Shown: positions 7,851 to 16,707, counted from the stretch's first letter. The stretch: DNA of 64,000 nt from Escherichia phage vB_EcoM-pEB20 (OP114733); one strand, 5' to 3'. Notes: a model not told the origin generated them from the letters alone. A program made the numbers and translations.

Positions 7851-8213
7851 ATGAAAGCATATCAAATTCTTGAAGGTACACATAAAGGCACTATTTATTT
7901 TGAAGATGGTACTCAAGCCCGGATTATTGTCTCTAAAACTTTTAAAGAAGACGCTATTGTAGACCCAGAAATTTTCTACGGTTTGCATGCCCGTGAAATT
8001 GAAATTGAACATCAACCTAAAGTTAAAATTGAAGGTGGTCAACATCTGAATGTTAACGTTCTGCGTCGTGAAACTCTAGAAGATGCAGTTAAGCATCCGG
8101 AAAAATATCCGCAGCTGACCATCCGTGTATCCGGTTATGCAGTTCGCTTTAACTCTCTGACTCCGGAACAGCAGCGCGACGTTATCGCTCGCACCTTTAC
8201 TGAGAGTCTATAA
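7851..8213 (+). CDS. autonomous glycyl-radical cofactor (GrcA/YfiD-like; T4 Y06I-type)
   Basis: C-terminal [29 protein letters not shown] glycyl radical motif, near identical to E. coli GrcA as recalled. Confidence 0.85.
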
Positions 8214-8437
8214 TGGCTAAATTGATTATAGAAGGGTCTGAAGATGTTTTAAAATGTTTTGCCGCCTGGTTTAGTTGCTCAGGCGAGCAATCATTCACTG
8301 AAGCATTTAGAACGGGTGATATTACTGGAAAATATCCGACAACCGATATCACTGTACGTGGATATGGTATTAATGAGCCTATCCAATTGGTCGAATATGA
8401 CCTTGCCACCGATGAGGAAATTCCTTATGTCGATTGA
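8213..8437 (+). CDS. hypothetical protein
   Basis: ORF track. Confidence 0.5.
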   Translation: MAKLIIEGSEDVLKCFAAWFSCSGEQSFTEAFRTGDITGKYPTTDITVRGYGINEPIQLVEYDLATDEEIPYVD

Positions 8438-8693
8438 AGACATCAAAGGCTACAAGCCGCATACCGATGATAAAATCGGTAAAGTGAACGCTATTAAAGA
8501 TGCAGAAGTCCGTCTTGGATTGTTGTTTGATGCTCTGATTGAAGAAGCATATATCTTGAAAGAAAATGAAACAGAGCAACAAACCAAAGAAGATATGGAT
8601 GCAGTGCAGGCTCTTAAGTATGCTAAGCAACATCTAAAAGAAGCCAGCATGTGGGCGTGTCGTGCAGTATTTCGACCTGAGGAAAAATACTAA
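8427..8693 (+). CDS. hypothetical protein
   Basis: Start at M57 of ORF 8259, GAGGAAA RBS 6 nt upstream. Confidence 0.5.
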   Translation: MSIEDIKGYKPHTDDKIGKVNAIKDAEVRLGLLFDALIEEAYILKENETEQQTKEDMDAVQALKYAKQHLKEASMWACRAVFRPEEKY

Positions 8694-8908
8694 TGGCTTC
8701 TACTATTACTGGGTTATTGGACTTTCAAGAAAAGGTCAACAAAATTTGTAGTGAATACTTAAAGTATCTTGAAGAAGACCTTGAAGATTGTAAGGAAGAA
8801 GGCGAAGAAGACTATGCTGACCAGCGTCGACGCCAAATCGAAGAGATGAGGCATTTCGCCAATATAGTATCTAAAGAATCTTGGGCTTTAACTCCATTTT
8901 ATCAATAA
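8693..8908 (+). CDS. hypothetical acidic protein
   Basis: ORF track. Confidence 0.5.
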   Translation: MASTITGLLDFQEKVNKICSEYLKYLEEDLEDCKEEGEEDYADQRRRQIEEMRHFANIVSKESWALTPFYQ

Positions 8909-8912
8909 AGTA

Positions 8913-8960
8913 GTTTACTTCTCCTCTAGTTGTGTTACTATAGACCTGTCAACTAGAGGA
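8913..8960 (+). promoter_or_regulatory. early promoter within 11-bp perfect inverted repeat (PeSL-like); right arm carries SD
   Basis: GTTTAC 8913-8918; arms TCCTCTAGTTG 8922-8932 and CAACTAGAGGA 8950-8960. Confidence 0.6.
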
Positions 8961-8969
8961 GAAATCAAA

Positions 8970-9428
8970 ATGACTATCAATTCAGACGTTTTTATCCGCC
9001 GTAATAAACTCCGTCGAATCTTTGAAACGGAGTTCCGCAAAATAAATGCCGGTATAAAAGATGCTGCAAAGTCTCTTGGACTACCAGGCTTTCATATCAA
9101 GTATTCTCAACATCTCTTAGATCGTGCCATCCAGAGAGAAATAGATGAGAATTACGTTTTTGAATTATTTCATAAAGTAAAAAATCACGTTAAAGAAGTT
9201 GCAGAATTTTTGTCAATGCCGGCACGTCCAGATGTTGATGAAGATTTTGTCGAAGGTGTCGAGTATCGTCCAGGCCGTTTAGAAATAACTGACGGAAATC
9301 TTTGGTTAGGACTTACAGTTTGTCGCGAAAATCCGGCATTCAAAATGAAGACTCTTCAATGCAGAATGGCTATTATTAACAGTAAACGACTACCAGGAAA
9401 AGCTTCTAAAGCAGTGATTAAAATCTAG
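8970..9428 (+). CDS. regB: RegB endoribonuclease (cleaves GGAG in early mRNAs)
   Basis: MTINSDVFIRRNKLRR..YSQHLLDRAIQREIDE..RLPGKASKAVIK resembles T4 RegB as recalled; 152 aa; synteny. Confidence 0.7.
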   Translation: MTINSDVFIRRNKLRRIFETEFRKINAGIKDAAKSLGLPGFHIKYSQHLLDRAIQREIDENYVFELFHKVKNHVKEVAEFLSMPARPDVDEDFVEGVEYRPGRLEITDGNLWLGLTVCRENPAFKMKTLQCRMAIINSKRLPGKASKAVIKI

Positions 9429-13183: not shown

Positions 13184-13295
13184 CCCGTGAACAAGCTAAT
13201 AAATTGATGGACCTTATTTAATTTTTATAGAAATCAGGTTGATGCTCGTCAGAATGATTTGGTGAATTTTGTTGAAACTTTAATTGGTGAATAAT

Positions 13296-13826
13296 ATGAA
13301 AACTGTAATTGAAACGACTGAGTTGTTTGGTGATTTATGTATCGAAAAACGTGGTTATGCGTACGTTCTGACGCAAGAAGATGATGTTGTTACTATTCTT
13401 CCTATGGAACTAGACAAGATTTTGAAACTCAATCCACCCGGCCATGCATCTGTAATTAACATTGATGAAGACCTTCAAGTTCGTTTTTATCACAGTCTTT
13501 ATAGTGGGGTTAATATCGAAACAGAAGATGAATGCCTTTCTATCAATAATTGGAAAACATTCGTCACTAAGGTGAAAGAATTCATAGAATCTGAAACAGC
13601 CAAAAAGGCCAAACTTCAATGGGCTAAATGCCGTAATGCTTTTATTACAAATCAGGACCGCCCTGACTATACAACAGTCCTAGGCGTTAATCCTTCTTAT
13701 GAAGACGGTGATGTCGTAGTTATTCGCCAAATTGATGACCTTCGTCAGCATATCATTACATTAGACAAAGATGAAGCAGTTGCTCTTAAAGCTTATCTCG
13801 ATTCTATTATCCCGACTTTGAAATAA
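13296..13826 (+). CDS. hypothetical protein
   Basis: M5 of ORF 13284. Confidence 0.55.
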   Translation: MKTVIETTELFGDLCIEKRGYAYVLTQEDDVVTILPMELDKILKLNPPGHASVINIDEDLQVRFYHSLYSGVNIETEDECLSINNWKTFVTKVKEFIESETAKKAKLQWAKCRNAFITNQDRPDYTTVLGVNPSYEDGDVVVIRQIDDLRQHIITLDKDEAVALKAYLDSIIPTLK

Positions 13827-13835
13827 GGAATTATT

Positions 13836-14309
13836 ATGATTATCAATGAAAACTCTTGGCATTTTAAAATTTATGCCGCGTTCAATAGTACATGGAATCG
13901 CCCGAAAACGTTGTGTGCTTATTTTTGGAAAACGTTAATCCCAGTATTGGCTGTTTCAATTATTGGATTTGCGATTTTAGCAGCAGTCACAATCATTGGC
14001 CATGAAATTTTAACTAAATTCTTTGTTTTTAGCAGTCTATGGACATTAGTTCCAGCCTCAATTGGTGTAGGCATTTTATTGGTAGCAGTCATGGCTTTTA
14101 TTTCTACCGGGTTGGTAATTGGTCCGTCTTGGTTGTTAGACAAATATAACGACAGAAAATATTATAAAGAAATTGAGCTCATTGCACAAAACCAAGAACG
14201 AATTAAAAATGGACTTGAGCCTATTGAACGTAAGAAATCATTAATAGGCGAATACCTTAAAGCTCGTAAAGAAAAAGTCTGTCCTACTCTTGAATATAAG
14301 GCTAAATGA
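13836..14309 (+). CDS. membrane protein (3-4 TM helices)
   Basis: ORF track; long hydrophobic segments. Confidence 0.55.
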   Translation: MIINENSWHFKIYAAFNSTWNRPKTLCAYFWKTLIPVLAVSIIGFAILAAVTIIGHEILTKFFVFSSLWTLVPASIGVGILLVAVMAFISTGLVIGPSWLLDKYNDRKYYKEIELIAQNQERIKNGLEPIERKKSLIGEYLKARKEKVCPTLEYKAK

Positions 14310-15295
14310 TGAAAACAATTATGAAAGGCTACTTTGGTAGCCACCTTTATGGAACGTCTACCCCAGAATCTGACGTTGATTTTAAAGAAATTTATGTCCC
14401 TCATGCTCGTGATATCTTGACCGGTAACGTTAAAGAACATATGAGCAAGAACACGAATAACACATCTTCTAAGAACACAAAAGACGACGTGGACCATGAG
14501 TTATATAGTCTCAAATATTTCTTTAAACTAGCTGCGGATGGTGAAACTGTCGCATTAGATATGCTTCACACTCCACCAAGTCTAGTAGTTAAATCTGATT
14601 TGCCTGATGTATGGAAGTATATTCAAGATAACAGGTCTCGTTTCTATACCACTAACATGAAATCTTATTTAGGGTATGTCCGTAAGCAAGCTTCTAAATA
14701 TGGTGTCAAGGGTTCTCGACTGGCTGTTCTTCGTCAAGCCCTTAAACGTTCTAATGAATGGGGACAATACTTTGATAACGGTGCAGTAATTCGTTTATCA
14801 CATATGAAGAATGTTCTGCCTGTAGGTGAATTTGCTTCATGGGTTGAAATCGAAAACGAGAAAACAGGTAAGCAAACATTCTATAATCTGTTAGACCGTA
14901 AATTCCAAGACACGTTAACCAATAAAGAGTTCAATGCCATCCTGGTTAAACTGGAAGAGAACTATGGTGAACGTGCTCGTAAGGCAGAAGCTAACGAAGG
15001 TATTGACTGGAAAGCATTGAGTCATGCATGTCGTGGTGGACTTCAATTATTGGAAATTTACAAAACCGGCGACCTGGTTTACCCACTTCAGGATGCTCCA
15101 TTTATTCTCGATGTTAAGCTTGGTAAACATACGTTTAAAACTGTACAAGAATTCCTAGAAGATATCGTTGACCAAGTTGAACATGCGTCAGAACAAGCTG
15201 CCAAGAATGGTATGCAACAAAAAGTAGATATGAGTTTCTGGGATGATTTCCTTGAGCAGGTCTATCTCGAAAATCATAATTCTTACTATAAATAA
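14306..15295 (+). CDS. nucleotidyltransferase-fold protein (YFGSHLYGTSTPESDVDF)
   Basis: Classic GS...DxD minimal NTase motif near N-terminus. Confidence 0.6.
   Translation: MMKTIMKGYFGSHLYGTSTPESDVDFKEIYVPHARDILTGNVKEHMSKNTNNTSSKNTKDDVDHELYSLKYFFKLAADGETVALDMLHTPPSLVVKSDLPDVWKYIQDNRSRFYTTNMKSYLGYVRKQASKYGVKGSRLAVLRQALKRSNEWGQYFDNGAVIRLSHMKNVLPVGEFASWVEIENEKTGKQTFYNLLDRKFQDTLTNKEFNAILVKLEENYGERARKAEANEGIDWKALSHACRGGLQLLEIYKTGDLVYPLQDAPFILDVKLGKHTFKTVQEFLEDIVDQVEHASEQAAKNGMQQKVDMSFWDDFLEQVYLENHNSYYK
15287..15294 (+). promoter_or_regulatory. candidate late promoter TATAAATA
   Basis: Exact TATAAATA 33 nt upstream of ATG 15327. Confidence 0.4.
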
Positions 15296-15326: not shown

Positions 15327-15608
15327 ATGAAAAAATTAGTAATTGGTTTATTCGCAGTAATGATGGCATTCTCTGTTGGTGCTACCACGGGTTCAGCCAG
15401 CGGTAGTGCAGGAACTGGTGGTAACCAGTCTTCTGGGCCTTCCAACGGTTCGGTAAATGCATCACATTCTCAGGGTATTGAGAATATCAAATCAAGCTAT
15501 ATTAATAGCACGGCCGGACAAGCAACTGAAGCATGGTCAAAGGGTCGAGTAGTTACACGCTCCGTATTCTGTGATATGCCTAATTATGTTGCTAAGTGCG
15601 ATAAGTAA
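15327..15608 (+). CDS. secreted Gly/Ser-rich small protein with signal peptide
   Basis: MKKLVIGLFAVMMAFSVGA signal peptide; GSASGSAGTGG low complexity. Confidence 0.55.
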   Translation: MKKLVIGLFAVMMAFSVGATTGSASGSAGTGGNQSSGPSNGSVNASHSQGIENIKSSYINSTAGQATEAWSKGRVVTRSVFCDMPNYVAKCDK

Positions 15609-15612
15609 ATGT

Positions 15613-15633
15613 GGGGACCTTCGGGTCCCTTTA
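15613..15633 (+). terminator. stem-loop terminator with UUCG tetraloop
   Basis: GGGACC-TTCG-GGTCCC then T-rich. Confidence 0.5.
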
Positions 15634-15726
15634 GGGGGTTAAAATATTTTTAAAAAGTGGTGTACATGCTTTTAGGATATGTTATTATAGACCTATCGAA
15701 ACGAAATGAGTAAATTGGAGAATAAA

Positions 15727-16707
15727 ATGTTCAACGTTCAAATCAAAAAAGGTATCTATCGTAATAACGAAATCTCTGGTTCTTATGTTGCCACAAAGAC
15801 CTGGTTCCCGGCAAAGCTTAATCCTGAATGTTCCCACTTAGGTGATGGTAAAATTTTCGTTATGATTGATGGTTCTGAACGTGGAGTATGGGTCTTCAAA
15901 TCAGACATCGTAATGGAAGGAGTTGAGACGTCACCGGTTGCAGTTGTTGAAAGCACTGAAGATATGAAAACTCGTATCAACAAACGCTTTAAAGTAATGA
16001 ACATGATGACGAATGGTATTATCGATGGCAAAATTCGTTCACTCATTATTTCAGGTGCAGCCGGTATCGGTAAGACGTATTCTCTGGATAAAGCACTTAA
16101 TAGTGCTAATGATAACGGTTTCATCAAATACAAAAGCATTAATGGTAAAATCTCTGGTATTGGCCTTTACGAACAACTTTGGCTCAACCGTGATGCAGAC
16201 AGCGTTCTCTTAATCGACGACGTTGATGTATTCTCAGATATGGATATCTTGAACCTTCTTAAAGCAGCATTAGATACCGGTGATAAACGCAAAGTTTGTT
16301 GGAGCACTGCGTCATCTTATCTTGATGATAAGGGTATTGATAAAGAATTTGAGTTTGAAGGTACTATCGTTTTCATTACAAACGTTGATATTGATAAAGA
16401 GTTAGAACGCGGTTCGAAACTTGCTCCGCACCTTCAAGCTTTAGTATCTCGTTCAGTGTATCTCGACCTTGGAGTACACTCTAATGAAGAGATTATGGTT
16501 CGAGTTGAAGATGTAATATTATCTACTGACATGATGCAGAAACGTGGCTTGACTGATGCTGAAACGTACAAAGCATTGTCCTGGATGAAGGCTAACGTAT
16601 CTCGTCTTCGCAATGTATCATTACGTACGGCTCTTTATGTAGCAGATTTTATTTCAACTGATAAAGATGGTTGGGAGGAAATCTCTGAAGTAACTTTACT
16701 GAAATAA
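15727..16707 (+). CDS. AAA+/P-loop ATPase (Walker A GAAGIGKT, Walker B LLIDDVD)
   Basis: M8 of ORF 15706 after GGAGAAT RBS; Walker motifs. Confidence 0.6.
   Translation: MFNVQIKKGIYRNNEISGSYVATKTWFPAKLNPECSHLGDGKIFVMIDGSERGVWVFKSDIVMEGVETSPVAVVESTEDMKTRINKRFKVMNMMTNGIIDGKIRSLIISGAAGIGKTYSLDKALNSANDNGFIKYKSINGKISGIGLYEQLWLNRDADSVLLIDDVDVFSDMDILNLLKAALDTGDKRKVCWSTASSYLDDKGIDKEFEFEGTIVFITNVDIDKELERGSKLAPHLQALVSRSVYLDLGVHSNEEIMVRVEDVILSTDMMQKRGLTDAETYKALSWMKANVSRLRNVSLRTALYVADFISTDKDGWEEISEVTLLK

Follow-up and report, generated by a model that had tools for sequence, protein, structure and literature searches.

The founding example of RNA repair is that by the T4 enzymes Pnkp and Rnl1, which act against the anticodon nuclease PrrC. 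The nuclease RloC, commoner than PrrC, was proposed, reportedly in 2008, to defeat this repair by excising the wobble nucleotide too. A family of nucleotidyltransferases (NTases) was named RlaP by Burroughs and Aravind (2016) for its linkage to RNA ligases, as recounted in later papers (PMC7824862, PMC12776372). Iyer et al. report that no other NTase is as prevalent in jumbo phages as RlaP, whose distribution mirrors that of RNA ligases, and give as its predicted role the replacement, ahead of ligation, of nucleotides that nucleases such as RloC have removed; some phages also carry CCA-adding enzymes for tRNA repair (PMC7824862). The activity was described in a preprint of December 2025, in which two RlaPs of Pseudomonas, PfRlaP and PaRlaP, add 1-2 NMPs to an RNA 3'-OH, with little NTP specificity and best with Mn2+ or Co2+ (PMC12776372). 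The 3' end at an anticodon-loop nick is preferred over the acceptor end, and DNA and proteins are not substrates; full-length tRNAs can be labeled by PfRlaP too, as can single-stranded RNAs (PMC12776372). When a tRNA mimic missing one anticodon-loop nucleotide is treated with RlaP before ligation, aminoacylation is partly restored, the low-specificity, untemplated addition supplying the correct nucleotide in only a fraction of the molecules (PMC12776372).

In the similarity network of the same preprint, NrdC.11 of T4 sits in a separate cluster, where it is marked as an RlaP "of unknown function" (PMC12776372). Its prediction as an NTase dates from 2006 (COG3541; PMC1524935), and the literature searched reports no experiments on it. 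The protein family is already catalogued, and a role for it in phages is a published hypothesis of others. Here we analyze the counterpart of this protein in a 64,000-nucleotide (64-kb) stretch, called the window below, of Escherichia phage vB_EcoM-pEB20 (OP114733), together with its relatives in phages, bacteria and archaea.

The NTase Locus of pEB20

The DNA of the window is 97-97.6% identical to that of Mosigvirus genomes (RB69-like, T4-type: APCEc01, ST0, JK36), and its + strand carries all of the long ORFs. By size and order these ORFs fit the early region of T4, which begins here with the nrdC cluster and extends past nrdD as far as DNA polymerase. The direct comparison of gene order with T4 covered the nrdC.11-to-nrdC.8 stretch only, and in it nrdC.10, nrdC.9 and nrdC.8 lie downstream of the NTase gene in the order that they have in T4. 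No tRNA genes were found within the 64-kb window. The features discussed in the text are collected in Table 1.

Table 1. Positions of the NTase gene of pEB20, its predicted parts and other genes of interest, counted from the first letter of the window.
Feature	Position	Strand	Basis
Second NTase-fold protein, DUF7277 + DUF7275, 318 aa	1360..2316	+	translated ORF
157-aa predicted membrane protein, probably coupled to the NTase gene	13836..14309	+	start/stop overlap
NTase CDS, 329 aa, ATG start; T4 NrdC.11 ortholog, RlaP-family (PF10127) Polβ fold	14306..15295	+	translated ORF; 78% identity, Pfam, PHROG, AF2
N-terminal NTase catalytic domain, ~aa 1-135; sole part aligning to the RlaP profile	14306..14710	+	
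F10-G11-S12, hG[GS] NTase motif	14333..14341	+	G11, S12 invariant in 77 relatives
D23-V24-D25, predicted DxD metal-binding carboxylates	14372..14380	+	D23, D25 invariant; align to DYD of canonical RlaP
D63, inferred third catalytic carboxylate	14492..14494	+	at least 90% kept; alignment to canonical RlaP; retention in T4
Variable insert, ~aa 160-205, small three-stranded β subdomain	14783..14920	+	AF2 strands; T4 comparison
C-terminal helical domain, HEPN/KNTase_C-like, with long terminal helix aa 309-328	14921..15292	+	
Clade signature D234-W-K236-A-L-S-H240-A-C-R243 (DWKAx[SH]HAxR)	15005..15034	+	conserved in 77-sequence alignment
NrdC.10 ortholog, P-loop/AAA-like ATPase	15706..16707	+	T4 synteny; weak AAA_22, AAA_16 matches

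The NTase protein begins with MMKTIMKGYFGSHLYGTSTPESDVDF. The ATG that opens its gene shares bases with the stop codon of the 157-aa gene upstream, in the sequence ATGATG (TGA at 14307-14309; junction AAATGATGAAA), so that translational coupling of the NTase gene is probable. In the checked translation, S12 and D23 are spaced by ten residues, which fits the Polβ pattern hG[GS]-x9-13-Dh[DE]h. The first-pass annotation of the window had read an NTase-fold protein with a minimal NTase motif at this position, and the ORF, the motif and the family assignment agree with it. It had added that lack of conservation of the motif residues would count against the reading; G11, S12, D23 and D25 proved to be invariant in 77 relatives.

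Membership in the RlaP Family

The protein matches PF10127 (RlaP) in Pfam with 49.1 bits against a gathering cut-off of 23 (E 7.7e-13), the match being limited to aa 7-136, or profile positions 23-143 of 249. PHROG 388 ("nucleotidyltransferase") is matched from end to end (E 4e-126). An initial search for homologs gave only sequences at least 98% identical, and the diversity of the alignment comes from representatives clustered at 50% identity: an exhaustive HMMER search of 1.84 billion of these matched 3214 at E<=1e-3, of which 743 also passed E<=1e-30, and most of the matched proteins are full-length, with 300-350 aa. Conservation was read from an alignment of 77 relatives that are 34-53% identical to the pEB20 protein, 76 of which match PF10127 independently. 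Profile-profile comparison with twelve full-length canonical RlaPs (hhalign) gave a probability of 94.9% and an E of 4.5e-8 over the N-terminal 118 columns. Judged from these matches, the NrdC.11-like clade is a divergent subfamily of RlaP (PF10127).

The residues invariant in the 77-sequence alignment are G11, S12, G16, S22, D23, D25, Y132, K236, R243 and G273. D61, D63, D85, K27, N57, Q128, K131, D234, W235, A237, H240 and A241 are, with others, kept in at least 90% of the relatives. In the profile-profile comparison D63 aligns with the invariant Asp of the canonical RlaP sequence "LDxNGWD". Because of this alignment, and because T4 NrdC.11 keeps D63 while it has N at position 61 in place of the D61 of pEB20, we infer that D23, D25 and D63 form the catalytic triad. 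The GS / DxD / third-Asp core is common to the pEB20 protein and the Pseudomonas RlaPs, PfRlaP and PaRlaP. The pEB20 NTase is apparently intact and catalytically competent, and we regard it as very likely that it belongs to the RlaP family as an active Polβ NTase.

The C-terminal half, which presumably binds the substrate, aligns less well. Against canonical RlaP it gives an hhalign E of 0.11, which is not significant, and the shared register K-x3-[HY]-x2-R is suggestive; in that alignment DWKAxSHAxR falls opposite VKxKxYxYALR. The DWKAx[SH]HAxR motif alone retrieved 156 relatives from bacterial and archaeal genomes, and the signature at residues 234-243 probably makes substrate or phosphate contacts. 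Canonical RlaPs are ~255 aa in length versus 329 aa for the pEB20 protein, whose ~75 additional residues include an extra loop at aa 40-60 and a β subdomain at aa ~175-201. Since the C-terminal half has no significant alignment and the extra residues are present, substrate specificity could differ from that of RlaP.

Relation to T4 NrdC.11

Of 50,697 phage records searched with tblastn, 1542 contain relatives, mainly in phages of Escherichia, Klebsiella, Shigella, Aeromonas, Acinetobacter and Vibrio. In T4 the match is to nrdC.11 (AAD42629.1), labeled "conserved hypothetical protein", at 78% identity over the full length. From this match and the gene order, the pEB20 gene is the RB69-group (Mosigvirus) ortholog of T4 nrdC.11. 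The first-pass annotation had recognized no characterized T4 counterpart, which holds in that the T4 gene is uncharacterized but, given the 78% match, needs qualifying, since the gene has a name.

The two proteins have all the catalytic and signature residues in common. T4 NrdC.11, which its record describes as "uncharacterised 38.9 kDa protein in the nrdC-mobD region", has 336 aa against 329 in pEB20, and the proteins diverge at ~aa 145-215, with substitutions and gaps concentrated around the insert at aa 160-205. The surroundings also differ: the upstream gene is the homing endonuclease mobD in T4 but the probably coupled 157-aa membrane-protein gene in pEB20, and in pEB20, but not in T4, nrdC.11 and nrdC.10 are separated by an extra 93-aa ORF with a signal-peptide-like start.

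Public databases already hold a protein identical to that of pEB20, under the labels nucleotidyltransferase, "RNA repair pathway DNA polymerase beta" and "thioredoxin". The last of these stands on many phage records of NrdC.11 orthologs and in one UniRef name; the protein has no thioredoxin features, and the label apparently derives from the nrdC.x naming of the locus. The block from nrdC.11 to mobD.3 has reportedly been published as deletable. There are also records in which nrdC.11 is shortened or split: just its final 39 codons are left in a 159.7-kb T4 record, and the match breaks into two pieces, which cover 67% of the protein, in KFS-EC and PHB13, both phages of Escherichia (records OL964745.1, NC_055757.1 and MK573636.1). 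The gene is therefore dispensable in the laboratory.

Predicted Fold and Other Nucleotidyltransferases

The AF2 model of the pEB20 NTase has a pLDDT of 93.5. An NTase domain (aa 1-~135) is followed in it by helices at 206-300 and a terminal helix at 309-328, and in its order of secondary structure this is consistent with the plan described for the PfRlaP crystal structure (NTase domain, helical domain, and a terminal helix that packs back onto the NTase domain). D63 starts the strand 62-68, and the insert strands are at 177-184, 188-195 and 198-201. A search of PDB sequences, with the single protein or the 77-sequence profile, gave no meaningful match. The structural neighbors of the model include KNTase/ANT(4'), LinB and an MNT-HEPN complex, and its C-terminal domain resembles HEPN/KNTase_C domains.

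Other NTases were compared in turn. Kanamycin nucleotidyltransferase ANT(4') and the NTase-like protein 3c18 are 8-9% identical to the pEB20 protein, with a TM-score of ~0.3 and no sequence-family match; the known substrates of ANT(4') enzymes are aminoglycosides. HalB of the Hailong defense system (9dbh) is 16% identical, with the likeness confined to the NTase core. It is a tyrosine-primed poly-dA synthase of 217 aa that is paired with the HalA channel, whereas the pEB20 locus has no such partner. Class II CCA-adding enzymes and poly(A) polymerases (PF01743) also have the Polβ fold and add nucleotides untemplated to an RNA 3' end. This class was rejected: the PF01743 head domain is unmatched at E<=1, and the poly(A)/U polymerase fold has a probability of at most 0.1. 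CD-NTases (CBASS) were rejected as well, there being neither a profile match nor a cGAS-like fold as best structural neighbor. So was the MntA antitoxin: the NCBIfam match scores 12.9 bits where 60 are required, and a recurrent HEPN-toxin neighbor is absent from the neighbor clusters. The first-pass annotation had proposed a comparison with CD-NTase, MNT, CCA-adding and poly(A) polymerase families; its reading as an NTase is correct, and the family matched is RlaP and none of those named. NCBIfam and PADLOC gave no usable matches for either NTase of the window or for NrdC.10.

The other NTase of the window had been pointed out earlier for its IGSRAL...SDWDF sequence. Its ORF is real, and all of 51 relatives share its G6, S7, D25 and D27. 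The two NTases were considered as paralogs and the relation was rejected, the hhalign probability being 0.9%. The best structural neighbors of this second protein are tRNA-modifying toxins of the MenT/AbiEii type and ANT(2''). Its C-terminal DUF7275 part is conserved to a very high degree; the invariant residues there are H128, D193-H194-D195, H198, E240-E241, E248-R249 and S277-G278-x-F-R-E, and the HD-like motif among them is only a hint to function. DUF7275 without the N-terminal domain is found in Streptomyces, Gordonia and Vibrio phages.

Local Gene Neighbors

In 30 of 80 viral loci a homolog of the 157-aa membrane protein, which has no Pfam match, lies no more than 10 kb from the NTase gene, in most cases on its upstream side. 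The NTases of all 30 loci are at least 43% identical to that of pEB20, and the membrane protein is sometimes missing. Upstream of it in pEB20 is a MobD.1 ortholog (13284-13826, +) with the N- and C-terminal T4_y05I domains of Pfam ("putative transcription factor").

NrdC.10 is linked in 24 of the 80 viral loci, every one with an NTase at least 49% identical to that of pEB20. A conserved functional module of NrdC.11 and NrdC.10 was considered and rejected, as NrdC.10 occurs only near the closer T4-type NTases and is absent from some of their loci too, for example L015, L017, L021 and L022. The Pfam matches of NrdC.10 are all sub-threshold, with a weak HTH_37 match in the C-terminal region. Between the two genes in pEB20 there is a GGGACC-TTCG-GGTCCC hairpin followed by T residues (~15614-15640) and then a promoter-like site before nrdC.10 (15661-15688; TGTACA, a 16-nt spacer and TATTAT, with TG), suggesting that the two genes are transcribed separately in this phage. 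The same interval contains the 93-aa ORF (15327-15608, +), which has a signal-peptide-like N-terminus, a Gly/Ser-rich region and a weak YbgS-like Pfam match (E 0.007); it is present in 2 of the 80 related viral loci.

Linkage to RNA Repair Genes

No RNA repair genes were found within the 64-kb window of pEB20. In APCEc01, which is 97% identical, RNA ligase 1, polynucleotide kinase and RNA ligase 2 are ~55-85 kb from the NTase gene. Linkage was also studied across the clade. From 80 viral and 80 bacterial or archaeal loci that were fetched, neighbors within four genes were clustered and the recurrent clusters annotated with Pfam; scoring to six genes used the cluster representatives and T4-type repair proteins as markers. 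Counts are for 154 loci, grouped at 60% identity into 64 lineages.

RNA ligase, Pnkp or RtcB is within six genes of the NrdC.11-like gene in 17 of the 64 lineages. Repair genes lie within three genes in 8 of 33 cellular lineages, which by our own uncomputed estimate is far above chance for rare single-copy genes. Of the viral lineages 3 of 33 have such a gene, a share that, phage genomes being small, does not clearly exceed chance and by itself is weak evidence. Arrangements typical of the linked loci are RtcB, NrdC.11-like, RlaP (L168); Pnkp/ligase, NrdC.11-like, RlaP (L138); NrdC.11-like, RNA ligase, Pnkp (L073); Rnl1, NrdC.11-like (L085-L087); and Pnkp, NrdC.11-like (L057). An HD (PF01966) or HD_4 (PF13328) phosphohydrolase is near the NrdC.11-like gene, often adjoining it, in nine lineages, viral and cellular (loci L068, L072, L075, L076, L079, L096, L099, L139 and L160). 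These enzymes may be an alternative end-healing partner that clears a 3'-phosphate or cyclic phosphate before nucleotide addition.

In bacteria, a canonical, full-length RlaP can be encoded directly downstream of the NrdC.11-like gene. There are 18 such loci in 8 cellular lineages, the hosts being bacterial genomes and MAGs that include Desulfobacterales, Nitrospirota and Alphaproteobacteria. The downstream RlaP of L118, for example, matches PF10127 over positions 1-248 of 249 with an E of 1e-75. Several of the pairs have start/stop overlaps of 1-4 nt, and some are in RtcB or Pnkp/ligase operons. Among the loci with such pairs are L094, L098, L101, L108, L114, L118, L123, L137, L138, L144, L146, L152, L157, L162 and L168, and in most of the tandem loci the NrdC.11-like gene is at about 8001-8980. 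The tandem pair looks like a two-NTase module. As a separate gene beside canonical RlaP, the NrdC.11-like clade is a paralogous subfamily, and its presence alongside RlaP and not in place of it suggests a distinct, non-redundant role. No canonical RlaP was found within six genes on either side in any of the 80 viral loci.

Proposed Role and Alternatives

We propose, with a probability of roughly 0.6, that the NTase adds a nucleotide to broken RNA before the phage ligase reseals it, by analogy with the characterized RlaPs. In such a pathway D23, D25 and D63, with a divalent metal (Mn2+ in the characterized relatives), would transfer 1-2 NMPs from NTPs without a template. The acceptor would be the 3'-OH of a broken RNA, typically a 5' tRNA half left by cleavage in the anticodon loop. 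The 2',3'-cyclic phosphate would first be cleared by the polynucleotide kinase/phosphatase (Pnkp) of the phage, the NTase would then refill the missing nucleotide, and RNA ligase 1 would seal. Such gap filling would let the heal-and-seal pathway of T4 handle nucleotide-removing nucleases such as RloC. The proposal starts from an ORF, its orthology and family, the conserved catalytic residues, the NTase fold and the linkage of the clade to repair genes, all observed here, and it would extend to the phage clade the same activity, with tRNA halves as the substrate and a nucleotide-excising anticodon nuclease as the target. Several points count against it: the C-terminal half has no significant alignment and the protein is longer than canonical RlaPs; in T4-like enterobacterial phages the gene has no RNA repair gene beside it, its neighbors being a membrane protein and a P-loop ATPase; the linkage in viral loci is weak; and untemplated addition would give the correct nucleotide in only some molecules. 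The first-pass annotation had offered both anti-defense, nucleotide-modifying enzymes and RNA repair or tailing enzymes as possibilities; the RlaP family and the clade linkage favor repair, and anti-defense signal synthesis is less supported.

Four other roles were weighed, each of which is less supported than break repair, the signal from the gene neighborhoods being that of break repair. Repair or tailing at the tRNA acceptor end, in which the enzyme rebuilds the 3'-CCA or undoes the action of end-blocking toxins, would require identical chemistry, an NMP being added onto an RNA 3'-OH. Another protein of the window has a MenT-like NTase fold, and MenT toxins target tRNA acceptor ends. Phages with CCA-adding enzymes for such repair are known (PMC7824862), and PfRlaP labels full-length tRNAs and single-stranded RNAs too (PMC12776372). 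However, the head domain family of CCA-adding enzymes and poly(A) polymerases is unmatched, RlaP in vitro favors the 3' end of the anticodon nick (PMC12776372), and the ligases, Pnkp and RtcB that neighbor the clade serve internal breaks, not CCA repair, all of which makes a role at the acceptor end unlikely. We consider it quite improbable that the target is instead a protein or small molecule, with the enzyme either AMPylating a HEPN toxin in the manner of MntA/MNT or modifying a metabolite or antibiotic as KNTase/ANT does. The structural neighbors KNTase/ANT(4'), LinB and MNT-HEPN and the HEPN/KNTase_C-like C-terminus agree with this possibility, as does a faint NCBIfam match to MntA over the GS...D motif, and the nuclease domains of PrrC and RloC belong, by the account in PMC3710099, to the HEPN superfamily. 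But the MntA score is far below its cut-off, the characterized RlaPs ignored E. coli proteins (PMC12776372), and conserved linkage is to RNA end healing and sealing and not to HEPN toxins.

Least probable is the synthesis of an anti-defense signal or decoy, for example a HalB-like oligodeoxyadenylate that holds a Hailong-type effector off: the resemblance to HalB is in the NTase core alone, a PADLOC match is absent, the sequence family is RlaP and not HalB, the neighborhood of the clade indicates RNA repair, and RlaPs failed to extend DNA (PMC12776372). The tandem loci raise a different possibility, that the protein is half of a two-NTase machine, as a partner or specificity subunit which, alone in the phage, would use a host partner or have a reduced or different activity. 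The 18 loci in 8 lineages, several with overlapping genes, speak for such a machine. The absence of canonical RlaP within six genes in the viral loci speaks against it, yet more so as the phage proteins keep every catalytic residue, and no RlaP is known from E. coli K-12; we hold it to be rather improbable for the phage enzyme. In bacteria the tandem paralogs might differ in nucleotide or end specificity, like the split CC- and A-adding enzymes.

Implications

Break repair by the NTase admits a more specific version, which we put forward only tentatively and consider somewhat doubtful: that NrdC.11 is the missing third tRNA-repair enzyme of T4, refilling the RloC-excised nucleotide for Pnkp and Rnl1, and that its clade is a distinct RlaP paralog paired with canonical RlaP in RtcB/Pnkp operons. 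The value at present is in a corrected annotation, "thioredoxin" being wrong in many records, and in the paired RlaP arrangement observed in bacteria. If the specific version is true, NrdC.11 would be a counter-counter-defense that has been overlooked for 40 years, and T4-type phages would already hold the answer to RloC.
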